This document shows positions 13,964 to 25,621 of a stretch of 25,676 bases of DNA, piece after piece. The number at the start of each line of letters is the position of its first letter. The stretch's first letter is position 1. The stretch is from Myxococcota bacterium (GTDB lineage Bacteria; Myxococcota_A; Polyangia; Polyangiales; Sandaracinaceae), in assembly GCA_036149055.1 (NCBI GenBank), contig JAYZQJ010000075.1, positions 1 through 25,676 of the forward strand, given 5' to 3'. Below the pieces are notes generated by a model. The model saw only the letters and a list, made by a program, of their open reading frames with translations, had not been told where the DNA came from and searched no databases. A program made the position numbers and the translations under genes.

Positions 13964-14737
13964 TCACATGGTGCGCGCGGACTCGAACTGAACCGACAGC
14001 TCGCCGTTCTCGGGGAAGTCGACCAGCACGCAGCTCGAGGTGAGGGTGCCGCTCATCCCGGCGCTGATCGTCATCTCGAGATCGCTGAAGCGGTCGCTGT
14101 CCATCGTCGGCGTGGTGTCGTTCCACATGACGAAGCGAGGGTGCGAGAACGAGATCGCGCTGCTGGCGGCCACGACCCGCACGTCGTTGAGCATCATGCC
14201 GCTCGCCACCCGGTTGGCGGTGAAGACCAGCTCCGCGCCCGGCAGCCCGACCTCCGCGAGGGGGATGCGGTTCTCGACGCCGTCGTCCACCGGGTAGGGC
14301 GAGGTCTGCCGGGTCATCGGACCGGGCCCCGGCTCCATCGGGTCCTCGGCGGGGCGCTCCGCCTCCGCCTCGATCCAGCGGCGCACCACGCTCGCCTCGG
14401 ACGCCTCCCACGCGGGGCCGCGGTGCGCGCCCTTGGTCACCAGGGTGCTCGCGTTCGGCTCGCCGGGCACGACGAGATCCGGGTAGGCGAGGACCGACCC
14501 GTAGTAGTCGCTGGGCTCGAGGAAGACCGGCGCGGTCGCGATGTCCTCGTGGCAGTTGCGGCAGCGCGCCTCGAGCAGCGGCTGGACCTCGGCGAGGAAC
14601 ATGGCCTCCGGATCGTCGCCGGGCCCGGGCCCCGGTCCCGTCCCCGGGCCGGTGGGCGCGGTGATGATCGCGGCCTCACACGCGACGAGGCCGAGCGCGA
14701 CCAGCGGCGCGAGCACGTGCGTGAAAGAGATGCGCAT
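13964..14737 (-). CDS. Putative monoheme c-type cytochrome lipoprotein
   Basis: Signal peptide with lipobox LVAC. FLAEVQPLLEARCRNCH resembles planctomycete-type cytochrome c domains (LVVPGEPNAS.L, later W-I). Beta-rich C-terminal domain. Confidence 0.72.
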   Translation of the reverse strand: MRISFTHVLAPLVALGLVACEAAIITAPTGPGTGPGPGPGDDPEAMFLAEVQPLLEARCRNCHEDIATAPVFLEPSDYYGSVLAYPDLVVPGEPNASTLVTKGAHRGPAWEASEASVVRRWIEAEAERPAEDPMEPGPGPMTRQTSPYPVDDGVENRIPLAEVGLPGAELVFTANRVASGMMLNDVRVVAASSAISFSHPRFVMWNDTTPTMDSDRFSDLEMTISAGMSGTLTSSCVLVDFPENGELSVQFESARTM

Positions 14738-14756: not shown

Positions 14757-14951
14757 GGGCATGCCAAGCTACCGCACGTGGAGAATTGGGCCAAGTCCCC
14801 GCCTTCGTGGAGCAAACTGGGGTGGAGGAGCAGGGGACGAGGGAACCCAGAGCGCTCCGTACTCCCCACCTCGAGGCCCGTGAGACCCAGCTCCACCGCC
14901 GATCTCGCGCCGCGCGTCGTTCGGCGCGGTCCCTGCAGAGCCACCGGGCTC

Positions 14952-15419
14952 ATGCGTCGCGCCGTGCGGATCCCGTGGCTCGCGCTCGCGCTCGCCGGCT
15001 GTGGCTTCGAGACTCCACCGGCCGACCCACCGGCGCCGAGCGCGATCGTGTTCGAGAACGAGGTCTATCCGATCCTGCTCCGGGACTGCGGCTTCCCCGA
15101 CTGCCACGGCTCGAGCGAGCGCTTCTTCCGGGTGTTCGGACCGAACCGGGCGCGGCTCGACGACGCGGTGACCGCGCTCGACGACCCGGCCACGCCCGAG
15201 GAGATCGCCGCCTCCTACGAGCGCGCCCGCTCGATGCTGAGCGGGGTCACCCGGCCCGAGGAGACCCTCCTGCTGCGCAAGCCGCTCGAGGTCGACGTCG
15301 GCGGCGCGCCGCACATGGGCATCGATCAGCACGGCCAGGACGTCTACCCGAGCCCCGACCACCCGAGCTTCCGCATCATGCAGGAGTGGGTCGCGCTCGG
15401 GTTCCCGGGGGCGCCATGA
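14952..15419 (+). CDS. Putative c-type cytochrome lipoprotein with a CX4CH motif
   Basis: Lipobox LAGC; FENEVYPILLRDCGFPDCH, LLLRKP, PHMG, IMQEW. Same pattern as 13964..14737. Confidence 0.72.
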   Translation: MRRAVRIPWLALALAGCGFETPPADPPAPSAIVFENEVYPILLRDCGFPDCHGSSERFFRVFGPNRARLDDAVTALDDPATPEEIAASYERARSMLSGVTRPEETLLLRKPLEVDVGGAPHMGIDQHGQDVYPSPDHPSFRIMQEWVALGFPGAP

Positions 15420-16132
15420 GGCGCGCGCTCCTGGCGGCGCTGATCGCGCTCGCCCCGGCCGAGGCCGCGGCGTTCTCGGAGTACGAGGAGTTCGAGCGCT
15501 CCGCCTTCGAGGGCGGCGGCGGCGGCCGCTACTTCACGGGCAGCTTCAACGACGGCTTCAGCTGCAACGTCTGCCACCGCGACGCCCCGCCGCCGACCGA
15601 CGGCGAGCTCACCGGCCTGCCGCTCGACGGCTACGTGGCCGGCGAGACCTACGCGCTGGAGCTCGAGCTGCCCGACGGCGCCTCCGGGGCCGCGCTCGAG
15701 GTGACCGACGAGCTCGGCAACGGCATGGGCACCCTGGAGCTCGTCGGCGGCCCTCAGCCCGCGGATCTCTGCCTCCCGGTCGACGGCGCGCCCGCCGAGC
15801 CGGCGGCTCACCTCAACGACCTCCCCCAGAGCCGGCGCGTGGCCACGGTCGACGGCTGCGGCGCCAGCCGCCTCCGGGTCACCTGGACGGCGCCGGCGAG
15901 CCCGGCCGGCCCGATGTGGCTCCACGCCGGGGTGGTCGCGAGCGACGGCAGCGGCGACCCGACCGGCGACGGCGTGCTGACCTACTCCCAGGTCATCGCC
16001 CCCCTCGGTGACCGCGCCGAGCGAACCCGCGTGGGCACCGGCTGCGCCACCTCGCCTCCCTCGTCTACCGGCCTCCTCGCTTCGTTCTTCTTCTTCGGGC
16101 TGCTGCTCGTTCGAGCGCGATCACTTCGGTGA
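15416..16132 (+). CDS. Exported CxxCH protein with a Reeler-like domain and MYXO-CTERM-like sorting tail
   Basis: ATGA overlap with the upstream stop, signal peptide ending AAA, FSCNVCH, GYVAGETYALEL, WTAP, SDGSGDPTGD. Tail GTGC - Ser/Pro linker - hydrophobic helix - basic RARSLR. Confidence 0.7.
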   Translation: MRRALLAALIALAPAEAAAFSEYEEFERSAFEGGGGGRYFTGSFNDGFSCNVCHRDAPPPTDGELTGLPLDGYVAGETYALELELPDGASGAALEVTDELGNGMGTLELVGGPQPADLCLPVDGAPAEPAAHLNDLPQSRRVATVDGCGASRLRVTWTAPASPAGPMWLHAGVVASDGSGDPTGDGVLTYSQVIAPLGDRAERTRVGTGCATSPPSSTGLLASFFFFGLLLVRARSLR

Positions 16133-16366
16133 CCCCCTTCGGACGCGATGCTTCGGCGACCACTAGTTTTTCTCGCTTCGTCTTCGAACGCGGTGCTTCG
16201 GTGACCACTATTTTTTCTAGCAGAGGCGCGGAGACGCAGAGGTCGGGTGGGCAGCGCCATCCCTCTCGCCGTGCTTCGCCTTCGAACGCGGTGCTTCGGT
16301 GACCACTATTTTTTCTCGCAGAGGCGCAGAGACGCAGAGGTCGGGTGGGCAGCGCCATCCCTCTCG
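16110..16366 (+). repeat. Tandem REP-like repeat: two 94-bp copies (16175..16268, 16273..16366; period 98) plus degenerate partial copies at 16110 and 16138
   Basis: The two copies differ at 3 positions. Motif TTCGAACGCGGTGCTTCGGTGACC occurs four times, two of them degenerate. Contains CGCAGAGGCGCAGAGACGCAGAG. Confidence 0.9.
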
Positions 16367-16510
16367 ATCGGCTCGACGCGGCTGAGCACCGAGACGGCGA
16401 GCTCCTGAGCACGGTGCGGGACGACTGCGCCGCTCGAGCCTGGTCGTCATCGGTCCGCCTCCCGGTCGTTCTCGGTCCGCCTCGTCCGAGGCCGACTCCG
16501 GCACCGTGAC

Positions 16511-16686
<176 letters not shown>

Positions 16687-16764
16687 ATTTCGAGTCCCGC
16701 TCCACGTTGGCGCGGAGCGCGTTCTCGCCCGTGCCTGCGAGTGGATCGGCTGACCTGGGGACGC

Positions 16765-16995
16765 GGCGGCGGGGCCGGGCAGCGGGACCGGCCGCGGGCC
16801 CGGCAGCGGCGGCGGGGCCGGCAGCGGGACCGGCAGCGGCAGCGGGACCGGCAGCGGCAGCGGGACCGGCAGCGGCGGCGGGACCGGCAGCGGCGGCGGG
16901 ACCGGCAGCGGCGGCGGGACCGGCAGCGGCGGCGGGGCCGGCAGCGGGACCGGCAGCGGCAGCGGGGCCGGCAGCGGTGGCGGGACCGGCAGCGG
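16765..16995 (+). repeat. 12/18-bp minisatellite (GGGACCGGCAGCGGCGGC)n
   Basis: Directly visible tandem units with 12-bp variants. Confidence 0.93.
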
Positions 16996-16998
16996 AAG

Positions 16999-17200
16999 CG
17001 GACTCGGAAGCGGACTCGGACTCGGACTCGGATTCGGATTCGGAGCCGGACTCGGATTCGGAGCCGGACTCGGACTCGGACTCGGACTCGGACTCGGACT
17101 CGGACTCGGACTCGGACTCGGACTCGGACTCGGATTCGGAGCCGGACTCGGATTCGGAGCCGGACTCGGACTCGGACTCGGATTCGGATTCGGACTCGGA
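16999..17200 (+). repeat. Hexamer microsatellite (CGGACT/CGGATT)n
   Basis: Directly visible tandem hexamers. The reverse complement (CCGAGT)n mirrors the 16511 array. Confidence 0.95.
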
Positions 17201-17290
17201 AGCGGCTTCGGCCTCGGACGAGCCCCGGTGACGAGCGCCCCGCCCGCCCCCCTCTGCGCCGCTGCGCCTCTGCGCGAAATTAACTGCAGC

Positions 17291-17515
17291 CCGGAACCCG
17301 GCGGCCAGCCCCCATCCCGCCGCCACCCTGCCCTCTTGGCGGCTTGGCGCCTTTGCGAGAGATAAATTGCTATCCGGAACCCGGCGGCCAGCCCCCATCC
17401 CGCCGCCACCCTGCCCTCTTGGCGGCTTGGCGTCTTTGCGAGAGATAAATCGCTACCCGGAACCCGGCGGCCAGCCTCCATCCCGCCGCCACCCTGCCCT
17501 CTTCGCGGCTTGGCG
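17291..17515 (+). repeat. 83-bp tandem repeat, ~2.7 copies (starts 17291, 17374, 17457)
   Basis: CCGGAACCCGGCGGCCAGCCCCCATCCCGCCGCCACCCTGCCCTCTTGGCGGCTTGGCG... repeated with few mismatches. Confidence 0.93.
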
Positions 17516-17544
17516 CGAGAGCGGAAGGCCCAGCGGAGGAGGCG

Positions 17545-19056
17545 TCAGCTGAGCGGGAAGAGGGCGCGGATGCGGGTGCCGCGGCCGGGCTCGGACTCGA
17601 TCTCGAGCACGCCGGCGCGCGCCTCCACGATCGAGCGGACGACCGAGAGGCCGAGGCCGGTGCCTCGGCGGCCCTTGGTCGTGAAGAACGGATCCAGCGC
17701 GCGGGCGCGGGTCTCGGGGTCCATGCCGTGCCCCGTGTCGGCGACCTCGACCCCGGCGAGGCCGCGCTCGGGATCGCGGACCGCGGCGACCCGGATGCGG
17801 CCGCCCTCGGGCATCGCGTCGCGGGCGTTCACCACGAAGTTGAGGACCACCTGCTCGAGCTGGGAGCGCTCGACCTCGATCGTCGCGCCGCTCGCCGCCT
17901 CGAGGTCGATCTGGAAGTGCGCCGAGTCGAGGACCCGGGTCAGCAGGGGCTCGAGATCGTGCAGGAGCGCGTCGACGTCGACCCGCTCGAGGCGGCGCAC
18001 CGAAGGCCGCGAGAGGTGGAGGAGCTGCCGGGCGAGGGTCCCCGCCTTCTGCACGCCGTCGGCCACGAGCTCGAGGTTGGCGCGCAGGCGCTCCGGCTCG
18101 CTCGCCTCGATCTGGGCGAGGTGGGCCGCCGAGCCGATGGCGGTCAGCATGTTGTTGAAGTCGTGGGCGATGCCCCCGACGAGCTGGCCGACCGCTTCCA
18201 TCTTCTGGGCCTGGACCAGCTGCGCCTGCGTCTCCTCGAGCCGCCCGACGTGCTCCTGGAGCTCCCGCATCATGCGGCCGCGCTCGTGGGCCGCCGTCAG
18301 CAGCTGGGCGAAGAAGGCGACCGCCCGCACGTCCTGCGCGCGGAGCTCGTCCGAGAAGAGCATGAAGACGTGGGCGACCCGGCCCGAGACCACGAGCGGC
18401 GCCATCGCCACGTCACGGCCGCCGAAGATGTTGGCGAGCAGGCTCGCGGTCCAGCGCAGGCGCTCCGGGAGGATGCCCTCGACGAAGACGACCATGTCGT
18501 CGGAGAAGACCGTCTCGCGTTCCTCGATCACGCGCCGGAAGAGCTCGACCTCGCGGTAGCGGAGCGCGAAGTCCTGGGCGCCGATGCCGGTGAGCTGCTC
18601 GGCCGCCTTGAGGAGCACCGGGCTCACGAAGTAGCGGCGGAAGGCGAGCGTGCCGCGCTCCGGATCGACGTCCGCGAGCACCGCCCGGAGGTCCCCCTCG
18701 AGCAGCGCCTCGCCGGCCGCGTCGAGCACCGCGCCCGGGTCGCCGGGGGCCCGCTGGAAGGCGAGCGCGGCCCGCCGGAGCGCCTCGTCGATGTGGGCGC
18801 GTCGCTCCGACTCGGCGGTCAGCTCCTCGAGGTGTCGCGTCGCCGCGCCGTCGTCCGCGCGCATGCGCAGGAGCCGCTCGAGCCGCGCCACCTGGCCCCG
18901 GAGCTTGCGGATCTCCCGCTGCTGGAGCTCGATCTCCGCGCCGAGCGCCGTGGTCCGCGCGGTGGACCGCTGCACGCCGCTCTGGTCGTCCCCGAAGGGC
19001 CGCGAACCTTCCGGTGACGTGCCCTCCTCGGCGTCGCTCTCGGCCCCTCGACTCAC
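17545..19056 (-). CDS. Cytoplasmic sensor histidine kinase (coiled coil, GAF-like, HisKA, HATPase)
   Basis: [23 protein letters not shown]-box, [11 protein letters not shown]-box, [19 protein letters not shown]. No TM segment and no receiver domain. Confidence 0.9.
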
Positions 19057-19109: not shown

Positions 19110-20423
19110 CTAGAACTGGTACTCGGCGCGGAGGATGCCGTAGCGCTCGGCGTCGGTCATCTCGCCGCCGCCCTCGCGGGCGCTGCCGAGGAAGGCGTGG
19201 GCCTCGCGGTAGAGCAGGTGCACCGAGACCTCGTCGATGATGCGGAGCCGGACGTGCGCCTCGGCCCCCACCAGGAAGCCGTCCTGCACCTGCCCCGCCT
19301 GGGAGAGCTCGTCGCTGAGGCTCCCCACGTGGCCGATCTCCGGCACGATCCCCAGCGAGAGCGGGCTGTCCCCGATGTGGAACCAGAGGCCGATGCGCGC
19401 GTAGATGCCGCTGAGCGTGTAGTCCGGGATGGAGACCGGGATCTCGCTGTCGAGCATGCGGAAGCCCCAGCCGACCTCGAGCTGCAGGCGCGTCGGCCGC
19501 TCGCCGGGCGCGAGGGGGATGTCGTTGCGCAGCCCGATCGCGAGGTGGTGCGCGCGCATGTCGGTGGTGCGGGTGCTGCCGTCGGCGCGCTCGTCGCGGC
19601 CCTGGAGCCCGACCGAGGTGGTGTAGCGGAGGGCGAGCGCGAGGCGGTAGCGGCTGCCGGCGTCCGGCCGGACGTAGCCGAGGACCTGCGCCTGGATGGC
19701 GGGGAACGGGATGGTGCTGAGGCGGGCGTCGCCGCCCTCCATCGGGATGCTGCTCGAGCGCTGGGCGATGCCGGCGCCGGCGCTGACCGCGAAGCCCCAC
19801 TGGCGCCGCATCTCGAGGGGGACCTCGTCCTCCTCGCTCGCCTCGGGCGCGCTCTCCTCCTCGCTGGCCCCCTCGGCCGCGGCCGCCTCCTGCGCCTCCC
19901 AGTCGAGCGGCGGCGGAAGATCTCCGCCCTCGCCGCCCTCGGCCGCCGGCGCCGCGTCGGGGGCGCTCGCCTGGGCGGGCGGCGCGCCGCCGGTCACCGC
20001 GCGCAGGTCCCGGAGGATCGCGTGCTGGCTGGCCGGGCGGAGGTGCATGCCCCGCATCGAGTAGTTGCTGCTGGTGACCAGCTCGCCGCTCTGGCCGCTG
20101 TAGAAGCGGAGCCGGAGCGTGCGGTTGCGGTAGTGGCCGCCGTAGCTCGCGACCACGATGACGTCGGCGTTCTGCTGGGTCCCCACCCTGCGCACCGCGC
20201 GGGCGCTGCTCGGCCGGAGCCCCGCCTGCGCGCACGCCCGGACGTAGTCGTCGTAGCTGACGAGCACGCCGCCCGAGGACAGCAGGCGGGAGACGGTCCG
20301 GCGGAGCCGCGCGGGCACCGTGCCGCCCGGCGCGAAGAGCACCCGCGGCGTGTCGCTCGCCTGCGCCTCCACGCCCGCGGGCGCGGCGATCAGGACGGCG
20401 AGGAGGACGAGGACGGCGCGCAT
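19110..20423 (-). CDS. Exported protein, probable outer-membrane beta-barrel with an N-terminal alpha/beta domain
   Basis: Signal peptide, acidic Ala/Glu/Pro linker, then amphipathic strands (FAVSAGAGI, LQLEVGWGF, YARIGLWF) ending GILRAEYQF (C-terminal Phe beta-signal). Starts 4 nt after the TlpA stop. Confidence 0.65.
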   Translation of the reverse strand: MRAVLVLLAVLIAAPAGVEAQASDTPRVLFAPGGTVPARLRRTVSRLLSSGGVLVSYDDYVRACAQAGLRPSSARAVRRVGTQQNADVIVVASYGGHYRNRTLRLRFYSGQSGELVTSSNYSMRGMHLRPASQHAILRDLRAVTGGAPPAQASAPDAAPAAEGGEGGDLPPPLDWEAQEAAAAEGASEEESAPEASEEDEVPLEMRRQWGFAVSAGAGIAQRSSSIPMEGGDARLSTIPFPAIQAQVLGYVRPDAGSRYRLALALRYTTSVGLQGRDERADGSTRTTDMRAHHLAIGLRNDIPLAPGERPTRLQLEVGWGFRMLDSEIPVSIPDYTLSGIYARIGLWFHIGDSPLSLGIVPEIGHVGSLSDELSQAGQVQDGFLVGAEAHVRLRIIDEVSVHLLYREAHAFLGSAREGGGEMTDAERYGILRAEYQF

Positions 20424-20427
20424 GGGC

Positions 20428-20922
20428 TTACAGCAGCTCGCGGATCTGACGCTCCAGGGTGGCGGCGTCGCCGCCGCGGAACCCCGAGTGTACGTGCCGG
20501 ACGACCCCCTGACGATCGATGATGTAGGTCGACGGCATCGTCGGCGGGCGGAAGCGGTTGGCGACCGAGTGATCCGCGTCGTGCATCACCGGGAACGACA
20601 CGCGGGTCCGGCTCAGGAAGCCGCGCGCGTTGTCGGCGGTGCGGTCTTCGCTGACCCCGATGACCACCAGGCCCTGGCCGCGGTAGCGCTGATAGATGCG
20701 CTCGAGCGCCGGCATCGCCTCCGCGCAGGGCTCGCACCAGGACGCCCAGAAGTCGACCACCACCACCGAGCCCCGGTGCTGGGCGAGATCGATCCGCTCG
20801 GCGTTGGCGAGCGCCCGGCCATCGAACGCCGGCGCCCGCGCGCCCGGGTCGAGGGCGAAGGTCGCCGACGTCATGAGCAGCGCCGCGCCCGCGGCGAAGA
20901 ATCCAACCATCCAGCGATTCAT
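20428..20922 (-). CDS. Exported TlpA-family thiol:disulfide oxidoreductase
   Basis: GGAGG before ATG 20922, signal peptide, VVVVDFWASWCEPC, MPSTYIIDRQG. Confidence 0.9.
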   Translation of the reverse strand: MNRWMVGFFAAGAALLMTSATFALDPGARAPAFDGRALANAERIDLAQHRGSVVVVDFWASWCEPCAEAMPALERIYQRYRGQGLVVIGVSEDRTADNARGFLSRTRVSFPVMHDADHSVANRFRPPTMPSTYIIDRQGVVRHVHSGFRGGDAATLERQIRELL

Positions 20923-21115
20923 TCGGTACCTCCCGGTGGACACGTGGGGCTCGTCACGCAGGACTCGTGCCGGCAGCGGGGCGCGCGAAAGGCCGGGGAC
21001 CGGGGTCCTCGCTGGAGACTCGGCACCCCGGATTTCCGGAGCGCGGAGCGCGTTCTGAGGGAGCATCCGGGGTTCCTCGACCCCCGGATCCGAAGTCTCC
21101 ACCGGGGATTCCATC

Positions 21116-21131
21116 GGGCACGGATTCTGCG
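21116..21131 (+). promoter_or_regulatory. Putative sigma54 (-24/-12) promoter of the multiheme cytochrome operon
   Basis: GGGCACG-GATT-CTGCG with exact GG-N10-GC spacing (consensus TGGCACG-N4-TTGC), 53 nt before ATG 21185. Confidence 0.55.
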
Positions 21132-21184
21132 TGGCGGGCAGCGGGGCCTCTCGTCCGGCCCCTCACGGGAACGAAGGAAGAGCC

Positions 21185-24157
21185 ATGAACCGACGCCTCT
21201 CGCTGCTGACCGCGCTCGCCCTGAGCGCTTGCGCGCCCGACCCGTTCATCGCTGGCGACGGCGGCACGGGACCGGCGCCGGTGTGCGACGCCTACGAGTA
21301 CCGCGGCACGACCTACGACTGCGCGGCCCTCGACCGGTGCACCGAGACGGACATCACCTATCGGCTCGCCTGCTGCGAATGCGACCCGCGGCTCTGCAAC
21401 CCGGATCCGGACTGCGGCGACGCGGGCGGCCCGCCCATCCCGGACGGTCCGGCCGAGAGCTGCATGAGCTGCCACAACGGCTCGGACCGCAACGACTACG
21501 CGGGCGACGGCATGAGCAACCCCCACCCGTTCCCGGGGGAGCCCAACGTCCAGTGCACCACCTGCCACGGCGGCAACGGCCGCGGGACGGGCAAGCTCGG
21601 CAGCCACGTGCCGCCGCCCCCGGAGATCGGCGACGACGAGAACCTCGTCGACAACGAGGTCGCCTACTACAACCGCCGCACCCTCGCGGGCATCGACCGC
21701 TTCCCCGACTACACCGTCGACGGCGTCACCTACACCGCGCTCGAGTACCTGCAGTTCATCAACCCCGGCGACCTCCGGGTCGTCACGGCCGGCGAGGGCT
21801 GTGGGACCCCGGGCTGCCACGCGGGCGAGCACGCCGAGTGGGTCGAGAACGGCCCCATCGGCAACGCGGTCGGCATGTTCAGCGGCGCGGCCTACACCGC
21901 CGGCCTCGAGAACGAGATCCCGGAGCACCGCGGGCTCTGGGAGAACACCGCCGGCGACTACGGCTGGCGCGCGGACGAGGACACCGACTGGGAGGGCCCC
22001 GGCGACCTCGTCGGCTCCATCGGGCGCGTCGAGGCGCTGCCGGAGCGCGGCCAGTTCGGCACCGGCGAGATCTACGAGAACCCCGTCTACAACGCGGCCA
22101 ACTTCGGCGACTACGTCACCGCGGCCGGCGACCCGGACGGCGCCAACCGCATCATCCCGAACACGCCGCTCGAGCACACCTACTTCGAGGCCATCGGGAT
22201 CACCTGCGGGGACTGCCACCTCGGCAGCGCCGGTCAGAACGATCGCTACGGCGACTTCCGCTCCTCCGGCTGCACCGCCTGCCACATGGAGTACAGCGCC
22301 GACGGCCGCAGCCGGAGCAGCGACCCGAACGTCGACCACTTCGAGCCCGCCGACCCCGACGCGATCGCGGCGCCCGAGCGCGCGCACATCGACAGTCACC
22401 AGATCCGCAACGTCGCCAAGACCCTGCCGGGCGGCGCGTTCGTGCGCGGCATCAGCGACTACGCGTGCGCCGGCTGCCACCAGGGCAGCAACCGCACGGT
22501 GATGCAGTACTGGGGCCTGCGCCTCGACCAGAACCGCGACGTCGCGCAGGGCAACCAGTACCCGGAGAACCCCGCCAACTTCCAGAACAGCGCGAACGAC
22601 ACGCGGCTGTTCGACCCGGCGGTGGGCAACAACACCTTCAACGGCCGTGACGCCGACCAGTACCTGCTCGTCGAGGACTACGACGACGACGGCCGCGACG
22701 ACACGCCGGCCGACGTGCACCACGAGGCGGGCCTCGGCTGCATCGACTGCCACGGCAGCCGCGACCTGCACGGCGGCACCCGCGGCGACGACACCAGCGG
22801 CCGCATCATGAGCCGCATGAGCCAGGGCACCTTCATCGAGTGCCAGAGCTGCCACGGCGGCGTGAGCTCCTACGCGGCCACCGTGCCCTGCCGCACCTAC
22901 GGGGGCGACGAGGCCGAGTGCGCGATCGACCGGCTGGGCAACCCGCTCCGCCACGTCACCCGCGAGGGCGACGACTTCTACCTGACCAGTCGCCTGACCG
23001 GCCGCCGCCACTTCGTGGTGCAGACCCGCGACACGGTGGTCGACAACGGCAAGGTCAACCCCTTCACCCGCCAGCGCCTCTACACCCCGCTCGCCTCCTA
23101 CGCGATGGGCCGCGCGGACGGGAACCCGGCGACCGGCGTCGGCCCGCTCCAGGCGGACCCGACGACCTACACCGCGGGCTTCAGCCACACCGACCGCATG
23201 GACTGCGCGAGCTGCCACTCGAGCTGGACCAACAACTGCGTCGGCTGCCACCTCGCGAACGGCTACGACGCCAACCCGGCGAACTACTTCGTCAGCAACC
23301 TGACCGGCGAGCGCATCGTGCAGTTCCAGGCGGCGGCGGACTTCACCTACCAGACGCCGGTGCCCTTCTACCTGGGCGTGAACGCGCGCGGCCGGATCAC
23401 GCAGACCCAGCCGGGCATCCAGATGTTCTACCGCTACTTCGACCTCAACGGGACCGAGTCGCAGGTGTTCGCCTTCAGCGACCGCAACGGCAACGGCAAC
23501 AACCCGAACGTCGGCGGACGCGACGCCCACGGGGCGCTCAGCCACGACGCGATGATGCCGCACTCCATCCGCGGCCGCGTCAGCGGCTCGGACGAGGGGC
23601 CGCGCTACTGCGTCGCCTGCCACATGACCGAGAACTCGCTCGACACCTTCGGCGCGCAGTACGACGTCTTCCGCAACGCGATGGCGAACCGGAACTACAA
23701 CCGGCTCGACTTCAACCTGCTGCGGCAGCACATCGGCCAGAACACCGGAAACCAGCTGGACAGCCCGATCTGGGTGCACATGGTGGCGGGCCTCGGCTCC
23801 GGCATCTTCCTCTTCGACGAGACCGGCTGCCCGGAGAACCCGCTCGACGACAACGCCAACCGCGCGTACTGCCCGGACGGCGCGCCGGCGAACAACTTCG
23901 ACGCGAACGACGTCGTCTACAACCTCGACGGCCTGGTCGAAGCCAACGGCATCTCGAACGCCTCGAGCAGCCACCCGGCGCTCGACCGCGAGCGGGTCCG
24001 CGGGCTGCGCATCGGCGCGACGAACCCCTACACCAGCGGCCCGCTCGGCGCGGACCTGACGCAGCTCCTCGCCGACCCCGACGTGGGCGTGGTGCTCGAC
24101 AGCTGGATCGACGCCGACGGCGCCGCCCAGGGCAACGCCGCCGACTTCATCGACTGA
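21185..24157 (+). CDS. Large multiheme c-type cytochrome lipoprotein (10 CxxCH + 1 CX4CH)
   Basis: Lipobox LSAC. Motifs CMSCH, CTTCH, CGTPGCH, CGDCH, CTACH, CAGCH, CIDCH, CQSCH, CASCH, CVGCH, CVACH. Purine-rich RBS before ATG 21185; 990 aa. Confidence 0.9.
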   Translation: MNRRLSLLTALALSACAPDPFIAGDGGTGPAPVCDAYEYRGTTYDCAALDRCTETDITYRLACCECDPRLCNPDPDCGDAGGPPIPDGPAESCMSCHNGSDRNDYAGDGMSNPHPFPGEPNVQCTTCHGGNGRGTGKLGSHVPPPPEIGDDENLVDNEVAYYNRRTLAGIDRFPDYTVDGVTYTALEYLQFINPGDLRVVTAGEGCGTPGCHAGEHAEWVENGPIGNAVGMFSGAAYTAGLENEIPEHRGLWENTAGDYGWRADEDTDWEGPGDLVGSIGRVEALPERGQFGTGEIYENPVYNAANFGDYVTAAGDPDGANRIIPNTPLEHTYFEAIGITCGDCHLGSAGQNDRYGDFRSSGCTACHMEYSADGRSRSSDPNVDHFEPADPDAIAAPERAHIDSHQIRNVAKTLPGGAFVRGISDYACAGCHQGSNRTVMQYWGLRLDQNRDVAQGNQYPENPANFQNSANDTRLFDPAVGNNTFNGRDADQYLLVEDYDDDGRDDTPADVHHEAGLGCIDCHGSRDLHGGTRGDDTSGRIMSRMSQGTFIECQSCHGGVSSYAATVPCRTYGGDEAECAIDRLGNPLRHVTREGDDFYLTSRLTGRRHFVVQTRDTVVDNGKVNPFTRQRLYTPLASYAMGRADGNPATGVGPLQADPTTYTAGFSHTDRMDCASCHSSWTNNCVGCHLANGYDANPANYFVSNLTGERIVQFQAAADFTYQTPVPFYLGVNARGRITQTQPGIQMFYRYFDLNGTESQVFAFSDRNGNGNNPNVGGRDAHGALSHDAMMPHSIRGRVSGSDEGPRYCVACHMTENSLDTFGAQYDVFRNAMANRNYNRLDFNLLRQHIGQNTGNQLDSPIWVHMVAGLGSGIFLFDETGCPENPLDDNANRAYCPDGAPANNFDANDVVYNLDGLVEANGISNASSSHPALDRERVRGLRIGATNPYTSGPLGADLTQLLADPDVGVVLDSWIDADGAAQGNAADFID

Positions 24158-24226
24158 GGATGCGCGGGCGCTTGCCCGCGCGGCCGTCTCCGAAGTACCC
24201 AGTCCAACGTGAGCCTCCCCCACCCC

Positions 24227-25411
24227 ATGTCTCGTTCGAGTAGAGTTGTGAGGTGGGGGGCTGCGAGGTGGGGGCTGACGCTCGCGACGCTCCTCGTCGC
24301 CGCTCCGGCCTCGGCCAACGAGGGGACCGCCGGCATCTTCGTCCGCGGCGACAGCGACGCGACCATCGTCGTGTCCCCGCGGGCCGCGGTGCAGGTCGAC
24401 GTCGAGGAGAACACCGAGGTCACCGCGGCCTACATGGCCGACGTCTGGACCAGCGCGAGCATCGACATCCGGACCGCGGCCACCCGCCCGGTCGGCGCCC
24501 GCGCCGCCGAGGACTCCGAGTACCTCTGGATCACCGAGCAGCGCGACCAGCTCGACCTCTCGGTGAGCCACCAGCTCGGCGACGTGAGCCTCGGGGGCGC
24601 CTACTACTACTCGGGCGAGAACGACTACTGGTCCCACGGCTTCACGCTGAGGGCGACCGAGGAGCTCTTCGGCAAGAGCACCACGCTGACCCAGAGCCTG
24701 CGCTTCGTGCACGACATCGTCGGCCGGAGCGGCGACCCCAACTTCGAGCGCCCGCTGAACACCTTCGGCGCGCGCCTCGTCTGGTCTCAGATCCTCTCAC
24801 CCGACGCGATCGTGCAGGCGGTCTGGGAGGGCATGTACCGCAACGGGTTCCAGTCGAGCGTCTACCGATTCGTCGGCCTCGGCGGCAACGGCATGTGCGG
24901 CATCGATCCGGAGACCGGCGACCTCGGGACGGCGAGCCTCTGCGTGCCGGAGGCCCACCCGAGCACCCGCATCCGCAACGCCTTCGTCCTGCAGGGGCGC
25001 TACGCGTTCAGCGACGACACCAGCGCGGGCGTCGGCTACCGCTTCTACTTCGACGACTGGGGCATCTACTCGCACACCGCCATCGCGCAGATCGCGTGGG
25101 TGCCGGCCGAGAACCAGACCATCACGTTCCGCTACCGCTTCTACACGCAGACCGCGGCCGGCTTCTACCAGTCCCGCTACGACCCACCGCCGGGCGCCCA
25201 GATCCGCTTCGTCACCCGGGACCGCGAGCTGAGCCCGACCTTCTCGAACCGCCTCGCCTTCTCGTACCAGGGCCGCACGACCCTCACCGAAGGCGTCGGC
25301 CTGAAGGTCGCCTTCGCCCTCGGCGGGACCATCTTCGTCTACCCGGACTTCGTCGGCCTCGACGAGGTCTACGCCCTCGACGGCACCCTGTCGTTCACCC
25401 TGGAGCTCTGA
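24227..25411 (+). CDS. DUF3570-family outer-membrane beta-barrel protein
   Basis: Signal peptide ending PASA; DVWTSAS, SGENDYWS, YRFYFDDWGIYSHT, RYRFYTQTAAGFY and TRDRELS match the family as I recall it. Start uncertain (24209/24227/24248). Confidence 0.8.
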   Translation: MSRSSRVVRWGAARWGLTLATLLVAAPASANEGTAGIFVRGDSDATIVVSPRAAVQVDVEENTEVTAAYMADVWTSASIDIRTAATRPVGARAAEDSEYLWITEQRDQLDLSVSHQLGDVSLGGAYYYSGENDYWSHGFTLRATEELFGKSTTLTQSLRFVHDIVGRSGDPNFERPLNTFGARLVWSQILSPDAIVQAVWEGMYRNGFQSSVYRFVGLGGNGMCGIDPETGDLGTASLCVPEAHPSTRIRNAFVLQGRYAFSDDTSAGVGYRFYFDDWGIYSHTAIAQIAWVPAENQTITFRYRFYTQTAAGFYQSRYDPPPGAQIRFVTRDRELSPTFSNRLAFSYQGRTTLTEGVGLKVAFALGGTIFVYPDFVGLDEVYALDGTLSFTLEL

Positions 25412-25414
25412 CCC

Positions 25415-25621
25415 ATGCGCCTGCTCGCCATCGCCTTCTGCCTCACCTGCCTGAGCGGCTGCGTCACCATCCAGCCCTGGGAGCGCGAGCGCCTCGCCCG
25501 CACCGACATGCAGTTCGGCGGCGCCGAGGAGCTCGAGGCGGCCGAAGGCCACGCGACCGAGGTCCGCGAGGCCTCCGCCGGCGGCTTCGACGCGGCCGGC
25601 GGCGGCTGCGGATGTAATTGA
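25415..25621 (+). CDS. DUF4266-family small lipoprotein
   Basis: Lipobox LSGC, QPWERERLA, REASAGG, terminal GGGCGCN. Confidence 0.85.
   Translation: MRLLAIAFCLTCLSGCVTIQPWERERLARTDMQFGGAEELEAAEGHATEVREASAGGFDAAGGGCGCN

Follow-up and report, generated by a model that had tools for sequence, protein, structure and literature searches.

A conserved 11-heme lipoprotein cytochrome beside a DUF3570/DUF4266 module in Polyangia: a possible thiol-to-flavin feed in place of a heme wire

Well-studied electron routes over the Gram-negative outer membrane consist either of heme wires inside porins or of shuttles. The locus described here occupies contig C75 of the 9.9-Mb genome G000 (96% complete), a contig of 25,676 nt that was analysed in its entirety and is referred to as the window; genomes, contigs and loci are cited by G, C and L numbers. 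The window encodes a lipoprotein cytochrome with eleven heme sites, followed by genes for a DUF3570 barrel and a DUF4266 lipoprotein, and divergent from these lie genes for a TlpA-type thioredoxin and a second predicted barrel. An initial annotation of this DNA had read the five genes as a non-Mtr surface redox system of a probable myxobacterium. The surface redox reading is still the best one for the locus, and the closest named homologues, which belong to the Sandaracinaceae, agree with the host. We propose, as a reading that stands midway between likely and unlikely, that a thiol-to-flavin relay feeds the surface 11-heme cytochrome in place of a heme wire.

The closest described systems are the flavinylated DUF3570 clusters, the PCC3 conduits, the Geobacter ext cluster and the Mtr-type conduits. 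As far as the main text of PMC8238504 goes, flavinylation is proven only for a DUF3570 protein of Chlorobium, at two motifs, the acceptor and location not being known; a path from DsbD through a thioredoxin and DUF4266 to DUF3570 is proposed there without a function, which is left open, and the words "barrel" and "porin" are absent. Moreover, section 14 of 10.1101/2023.06.07.544157 notes the DUF4266/DUF3570/TlpA trio as a partner of surface-sorted proteins. The window resembles the DsbD/ApbE clusters of PMC8238504, as described in its main text, in its TlpA-type thioredoxin, its CxC-bearing DUF4266, its DUF3570 with two flavinylation-like motifs and a genome that holds both DsbD and ApbE. It differs from them in that DsbD and ApbE are unlinked, in that the Gly of the motif is Ser or Ala, and in that the module has further partners, namely an 11-heme cytochrome, a second barrel and three small heme proteins.

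In the predicted PCC3 clusters of He et al. (2017, PMC5566968), the parts to be expected are an inner-membrane protein with two WxxxH-x13-H motifs, a periplasmic cytochrome of about 21 hemes and a large porin of many strands. Homologues of the present cytochrome (53–60% identical) adjoin clusters that combine a WxxxH-x13-H inner-membrane protein, a 20–27-heme cytochrome and a porin. The window lacks them, and G000 gave no match to PCC3 parts: no inner-membrane protein with two WxxxH-x13-H motifs was found in the locus or in G000, no cytochrome of about 21 hemes occurs among the called genes of G000, and the DUF3570 protein, with 16 strands in its model, gave no match to the K1/K7 porin profiles. 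Furthermore, the 11-heme protein has a low heme density, whereas the extracellular cytochromes published for PCC3 in PMC5566968 have a median of 34 hemes. The best named family match of the cytochrome is ExtM (GSU2935, of Geobacter extHIJKLMNOPQS), to which PMC5877670 and PMC11976967, in their accounts of this 12-heme protein, assign no reaction and which is not mentioned in the paper on MccSep sulfur respiration. The match to NF040943 (ExtM) reached 86.1 bits where the cut-off is 800 (E 1.7e-24; Atlas 0.88), with 11 hemes versus 12 and 990 residues versus a model of 599 positions, and the partners ExtH/I/KL/O/P were not seen in the locus. MtrCAB and OmbB–OmaB–OmcB share with the window a lipoprotein multiheme cytochrome that is encoded with an outer-membrane barrel and has a probable surface redox role; here, however, the barrel is narrow and a periplasmic wire cytochrome is missing, and the solved MtrC and MtrA structures gave no significant sequence or fold match to the cytochrome. 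In its working the system would resemble the DUF3570 system of the literature attached to the outer end of a PCC3-like conduit; formally, it belongs to none of PCC3, Mtr and ExtM. The combination of the 11-heme protein with DUF3570, the alternation of feeds and the shared operator treated below were not found in literature on DUF3570, DUF4266, ExtM, PCC3, the ApbE motif and myxobacterial multiheme proteins; supplement 1 of PMC8238504, which lists clusters, may include such loci.

The alternation of feeds is seen in the neighbourhoods of the cytochrome. Genes were called in 132 loci (the window, 31 of 32 and 20 others, and the best 80 of 219 from a wider listing), with flanks of at most 10 kb, many of them shorter. 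A near-full cytochrome was present in 121, the 11 truncated or weak ones being dropped, and 98 loci were left at 95% identity. A locus was counted as PCC3-like when it contained at least one of the conserved porin, a cytochrome with at least 13 hemes, or an inner-membrane protein with the WxxxH-x13-H motif. On this definition, 40 loci are PCC3-like, 13 carry DUF3570/DUF4266, 21 carry only a small heme lipoprotein (C1) and 24 carry none of these, while PCC3-like and DUF genes occur together in none of the 98. The full PCC-like order comprises a flavin adenine dinucleotide (FAD)/4Fe-4S oxidoreductase with a membrane protein, the 20–27-heme cytochrome, the porin, a 7–10-heme cytochrome and the 11-heme protein; this conduit, the commonest partner of the family, had escaped the initial annotation. 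Thus, one cytochrome family is found in two alternative neighbourhoods, and DUF3570 gains a concrete candidate client. The gene-neighbourhood comparison that the initial annotation had proposed gave a divided answer: the five-gene linkage is conserved, and the set stayed together through two rearrangements (L018, L021), but all 13 DUF-linked loci belong to one Polyangia clade. Their cytochromes form a single branch of 15 rows (SH-aLRT, an approximate likelihood ratio test, 100), of which two rows, on short contigs, are without DUF genes. That the PCC neighbourhood came first and the DUF neighbourhood later is only suggested, by a single long-branch outgroup.

Genome-wide presence follows the same division. 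Nine of the 21 other Myxococcota genomes with the cytochrome have any DUF3570 match; the remaining 12 have none, so that the cytochrome does not need DUF3570 and the coupling described initially is not general. The PCC3-type inner-membrane protein, in a search that scored 82 of 99 first-look candidates, was present in 18 of 18 carrier genomes outside Polyangia versus 4 of 12 genomes of the DUF clade, and was not found in the locus, in G000, in G385 (100% complete) or in the single-contig G245. Moreover, in six of nine C1-only genomes examined this protein stands beside a 30-heme cytochrome elsewhere in the genome, so that outside the DUF clade the cytochrome nearly always has a heme wire available. 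These genomes are kin, and the presence counts are therefore not independent. The largest heme count among the genes called in G000 is 13, in a gene near a contig end. In addition, one operon in f41 Myxococcota (L180–L182, L185, L186, L189), unlinked to the 11-heme gene, combines a flavo-iron-sulfur/membrane fusion, a 30-heme cytochrome and a porin-sized gene.

The cytochrome itself has a lipobox with Cys16. Its count of eleven heme motifs stands, although one site is non-canonical: ten are CxxCH and one, at residue 206, is Cx4CH. In 98 dereplicated homologues this column reads CxxCH in 45 and Cx4CH in 53, and since both Cys and the His are kept in all 98, eleven hemes is the correct number. 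The family is widespread and very conserved (778 matches among 8000 scored candidates; 56–95% identity among the best 120 of the 778), with named homologues from Myxococcota, Gammaproteobacteria and Planctomycetota, and of 401 genomes sampled from the phylum, 22 have full-length copies. Its structure model is compact and confident, with a predicted local distance difference test (pLDDT) of 89.8 and a predicted template modelling score (pTM) of 0.90. A sequence search of the PDB returned two weak rows only (E 0.016 and 0.054), and Foldseek, run with the whole 990-residue model so that a domain match may be missed, returned nothing at E ≤ 0.001. The best structural match (VIA), 1sp3, the octaheme tetrathionate reductase, is weak (Z 4.8, root-mean-square deviation (rmsd) 5.0, 210 aligned residues). 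These data point to an 11-heme protein that is conserved across phyla and has no solved relative. No CxxCK motif was found in the sequence. Nine near-invariant His outside the motifs and the invariant Met641 serve eleven hemes, which leaves room for an open heme; the cytochrome is probably a terminal redox enzyme. An extracellular position is suggested because some homologues carry immunoglobulin (Ig)-like or RTX repeats.

The arrangement of MtrAB and Pcc conduits, to which the locus had been likened, does not fit these proteins. A classical conduit, with the 11-heme protein inserted through one of the two barrels in the manner of MtrA in MtrB, finds its argument in the multiheme gene adjoining barrel genes, but is hardly credible in view of the products. 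The MtrB barrel has 26 strands, and the DUF3570 model has 16, with MtrB ranking only 36th among its fold matches (rmsd 8.8). The barrel-like part of the second barrel protein spans only about 230 residues. The cytochrome is a globular protein of 990 residues with 90 residues per heme, against about 33 in wire cytochromes such as MtrA, according to the heme-spacing data of PMC5566968. Finally, the locus is without a periplasmic heme wire or an inner-membrane partner.

The DUF3570 protein (PF12094, 118.5 bits, cut-off 25) and the DUF4266 lipoprotein with its CGCN tail (PF14086, 61.8 bits, cut-off 27) bear out the domain identities assigned at first sight. Of the two barrels announced, DUF3570 does model as one, without a plug domain (pLDDT 93.3), and the second is predicted from its sequence pattern and an Atlas look-alike. 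The folds closest to the DUF3570 model are PelB, BcsC and PgaA (Z 19.6, 19.0 and 18.8; rmsd 3.1–3.9), which are of the solute or polymer channel type. The protein has two flavinylation-like motifs, D-x-x-T-[SA]-A-[ST], which occupy the end of strand 3 and the flexible loop connecting it with strand 4. Barrels of this kind usually have short turns inside and long loops outside, and the motif-bearing loop is therefore predicted from the model to be extracellular. All 118 close homologues keep the D, A and S/T of the motif, and 114 of them have two motifs, within a loop that is otherwise flexible. The ApbE-adjacent myxobacterial DUF3570 proteins carry the same degenerate motifs, and in another ApbE substrate a Gly-to-Ala change retained about 50% flavinylation, in an experiment of PMC12052999 that does not cover Gly-to-Ser. 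DsbD was present in 5 of 5 clade genomes. As ApbE is present while FMN_bind was found in none of five clade genomes and DUF2271 in one of five, DUF3570 is likely, on domain content, to be the ApbE substrate.

A plug-free, channel-like barrel also lends itself to reductive uptake, in which a metal or chalcogen compound, once reduced by surface hemes and flavins, would be taken in by way of DUF3570 or the second barrel. Published clusters offer parallels: 25 DUF3570 clusters counted in the main text of PMC8238504 include the VIT1 iron transporter, and the ext cluster, in the description of PMC5877670, includes the porin ExtI, linked to selenite uptake. However, no genes for TonB, an inner-membrane transporter or a metal regulator were seen in the conserved locus, and the remaining putative members of the regulon discussed below are exported cytochromes rather than transporters, which makes this route quite improbable.

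In the proposed relay, electrons would pass from cytoplasmic thioredoxin to DsbD, an unlinked gene product, by known chemistry, and from DsbD to periplasmic TlpA. TlpA would then reduce the CxC tail of DUF4266, sitting in or below the DUF3570 barrel, and DUF4266 would pass electrons to two flavin mononucleotide (FMN) groups on loop 2 of DUF3570, attached by the unlinked ApbE; motifs and loop position are computed here. The flavins would in turn reduce the small heme lipoproteins C1b, C1a and C6, and these the 11-heme protein. The latter would most likely serve as terminal reductase, with an acceptor outside the cell that may be a metal oxide or a sulfur or selenium compound. NAD(P)H would be the electron source of the relay, and the same seems to hold for the PCC-like version, whose input is of the flavo-iron-sulfur type. 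Every contact within the relay is inferred. A narrower idea is that DUF3570/DUF4266 forms a heme-free outer-membrane conduit, in which a lipoprotein dithiol in the 16-strand barrel reduces outer-face FMN, and that Polyangia adopted it in exchange for a PCC3-like heme wire, to power the same cytochrome. This idea is tentative and leans towards doubtful; if it were true, it would mean a new class of trans-outer-membrane electron transfer and a function for two domains of unknown function. The relay reading would extend to the outer membrane the substitution of flavins and cytochromes for one another, which Meheust et al. (PMC8238504) describe in their main text for periplasmic enzymes.

Several results weigh against the relay. 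Respiration probably needs a faster supply than a thiol relay fed by DsbD can give, and the role of such a relay would therefore be a low-flux one. As the DUF-linked loci form one clade, their linkage represents one evolutionary event and not 13. The strict Gly form of the motif, [S/T]GA[S/T], occurs in only 2 of 118 close DUF3570 homologues, the relaxed form occurring twice in 114. The single apbE of G000 lies on a different contig and DsbD, on C19, is likewise unlinked, while ApbE, found in 30 of 30 genomes, does not discriminate by its presence. The palindromic operator described below was not found, at a 15-bit cut-off, in any of 42 fetched DUF3570, ApbE, DsbD and conduit regions of other genomes, among them the rearranged G245 copy of the locus. 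Four of 12 clade genomes carry the PCC3-type membrane protein, in all three inspected within PCC-like clusters elsewhere. Likewise, an unlinked porin homologue was present in 5 of 5 clade genomes tested, with a 13-heme cytochrome adjoining it in G000 and G385; another heme route therefore exists. Concerning linkage of apbE, none was found in the linked loci, including L091, whose cytochrome is 100% identical and whose sequence extends about 8.5 kb beyond DUF4266.

This second route is central to the alternative that TlpA, DUF4266 and DUF3570 are helpers in maturation or maintenance, keeping the many Cys of apo-cytochromes and surface proteins in reduced form or aiding surface placement, while electrons travel through the unlinked porin–cytochrome pair. 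Within NCBIfam, the thioredoxin best matches the cytochrome c maturation reductase ResA (93 bits, under the cut-off of 170), the client proteins have atypical Cx4CH sites and additional conserved Cys, and DUF3570 modules accompany several unrelated heme clients; the porin with its 13-heme neighbour lies on C263 in G000, and its G385 counterpart has a TlpA paralogue at a distance of 3.6 kb. Nevertheless, the Cx4CH form also occurs in nine PCC-linked and 21 C1-only loci without the DUF3570 module, heme attachment is periplasmic while the flavin-like motifs are predicted to face outwards, and neither G000 nor the surroundings of the unlinked pair yielded a PCC3-type inner-membrane partner. A helper role is thus judged unlikely, and the thiol-to-flavin feed of the cytochrome is kept as the preferred reading.

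Shared regulation is the remaining line of evidence. Promoters were scanned with the −24/−12 consensus that we take to be that of sigma-54. Of the 11 DUF-linked loci with sufficient flank, 10 have a box of this type ahead of the cytochrome, where 0.043 per 800 bp would be expected; the box is also seen in 4 of 19 C1, 1 of 40 PCC and 1 of 21 other loci; this enrichment is partly circular, since the pattern was chosen by eye from the same loci. An operator matrix trained only on the cytochrome promoter sites scored at least 14 bits between C1a and C1b in 8 of 10 loci, versus 5 of 505 divergent intergenic regions (the two of the window included). Throughout G000 it gave nine palindrome matches, the five best being all intergenic, and three of the four best outside the training set precede exported heme-motif genes, against a background of 144 heme-motif genes among 8110 called. 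The sequence thus points to a candidate regulon, a small one of exported cytochromes in an abundant, little-studied myxobacterial group. Moreover, C1a, C1b and C6, which recur in 8 of 13 DUF-linked loci, likely form one co-regulated system of eight genes with the five described at first; the initial extent was too small, having overlooked these three co-regulated heme-motif genes 3–5 kb upstream. A sigma-70 promoter scan found none, and a terminator scan gave one terminator-like match, at chance level. Control by FNR/CRP was rejected, as one box with two mismatches was found versus 0.77 expected and it is not conserved upstream of the DUF-clade cytochromes.

Co-regulation by itself would be compatible with neighbours only, that is, with a Polyangia ancestor that had brought several envelope heme proteins under a common operator, and with no electron exchange between the cytochrome and DUF3570. 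The single origin of the linkage, the 12 genomes that have the cytochrome without any DUF3570, the operator before unrelated DUF1592/DUF1552 cytochrome operons and the presence of three DUF3570/DUF4266 pairs in G000 all fit with this. However, the gene order was shuffled twice and the set stayed together, the cytochrome and DUF3570 genes are co-oriented behind one promoter in most loci, and in L087, from another family, a distant 7-heme paralogue of the cytochrome is also joined to ApbE and DUF3570. Mere neighbourhood is therefore regarded as very improbable. Heme proteins of the C1/C6 type or of other types adjoin the barrel in 12 of 20 other myxobacterial DUF3570 regions as well.

Table 1. 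Positions of the genes and regulatory elements in the 25,676-nt window
Feature	Position	Strand	Basis or remark
Lipoprotein cytochrome c of 990 residues with 11 heme sites, distantly related to ExtM; likely a terminal redox protein at the surface	21185..24157	+	
DUF3570 outer-membrane protein, predicted 16-strand barrel	24227..25411 (start maybe 24248)	+	Pfam, model
DUF4266 lipoprotein, 68 residues, C-terminal CxC	25415..25621	+	Pfam
Exported TlpA/ResA-type thiol-disulfide oxidoreductase, CEPC	20428..20922	-	Pfam AhpC-TSA
Second predicted outer-membrane barrel, N-terminal soluble domain and acidic linker; unnamed Myxococcota family	19110..20423	-	sequence pattern
C1a, lipoprotein, one CxxCH domain and a C-terminal domain predicted beta-rich from sequence	13964..14737	-	
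C1b, 155-residue lipoprotein, one Cx4CH site	14952..15419	+	
C6, exported CxxCH protein, choice-of-anchor V-like, Cys-hydrophobic-Arg C-terminal anchor	15416..16132	+	
Sigma-54-type -24/-12 box of the cytochrome operon	21117..21130	+	pattern scan
Second sigma-54-type box, toward tlpA and second barrel, less conserved	20958..20971	-	
Conserved upstream operator half-site	21038..21054	+	78–80 bp before the -24 box in 10 loci
24-bp palindromic operator, same motif, between C1a and C1b	14842..14865	.	

All five open reading frames named initially were recovered at their positions (Table 1). The DUF3570 gene is indeed the next one after the cytochrome, although not directly, the gap being 69–90 nt with the start at 24227 or 24248, and the contig ends 55 nt past the DUF4266 gene. 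The divergent exported CxxC reductase proved to be a TlpA/ResA-type thioredoxin with a CEPC site (AhpC-TSA, 86 bits), and its start is probably the ATG at 20922. The second barrel protein has no Pfam or NCBIfam match, and its Atlas look-alike carries OMP_b-brl (score 0.94). Among the upstream genes, the C1b domain is found doubled after the cytochrome in the C1-only Myxococcota lineage, while C6 matches choice-of-anchor V at 39.8 bits, slightly under the cut-off of 42, and its C-terminal anchor resembles MYXO-CTERM by eye. A histidine kinase gene at 17545–19056 lies within the cluster here and in a same-genus genome but not in the other linked loci; it was not counted as part of the system. 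Between C6 and this gene, positions 16133–17516 hold a low-complexity insert, made up of tandem repeats of 6, 18, 83 and 98 bp, which is missing from the same-genus genome. Long open reading frames on the opposite strand (e.g., 20954–24712) were taken as shadows of GC-rich genes.

Further copies and relatives of the cytochrome were also noted. Homologues extended by Ig domains stand next to a two-component pair without either feed (L099, L109, L130), and homologues with RTX repeats likewise lack either feed (L106, L110), pointing to secreted versions of the protein. In G121 the cytochrome gene is broken by one in-frame TAA near the 3' end (L062). In L138, L140 and L162 the cytochrome lies on low-GC (32–34%) metagenome contigs, and in L138 a nearby gene resembles a T4-type major capsid protein by eye, which suggests carriage by a large phage. 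G000 encodes two more 11-heme proteins (C14:107997-110399 and C74:6030-8045) that are nearer to ExtM (197 and 189 bits, below the cut-off).

As for the other components, the remaining DUF4266/DUF3570 pairs of G000 are at C287:13005-15664 and C58:50945-52284, the former preceded by a lipoprotein with a widely spaced Cys...Cys-His motif and by a small barrel-like protein. In genomes of family f41 (L085, L087, L088, L089), hydrazine-synthase-like alpha and beta/gamma genes cluster with DUF3570, with or without ApbE and TlpA. The unlinked porin-like gene (G000 C263:70-2678; L202–L205) is conserved, and its surroundings in relatives include, at a distance of a few genes, a TlpA paralogue, a Cx4CH lipoprotein and a DsbA-like gene. 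The palindromic operator also precedes two DUF1592/DUF1552 operons and a Cx4CH lipoprotein/barrel-like gene in G000 (C133:8138-11103, C227:79160-82135 and C68:23077-25211). Finally, DsbD adjoins a hydrazine-synthase-alpha-like diheme gene and a 1012-residue PD40/C1-domain lipoprotein in G000 (C19:7669-15683, L196) and in G245, G385 and G409 (L190–L192), and in G000 a weak operator half-site (14.0 bits) stands ahead of this lipoprotein.

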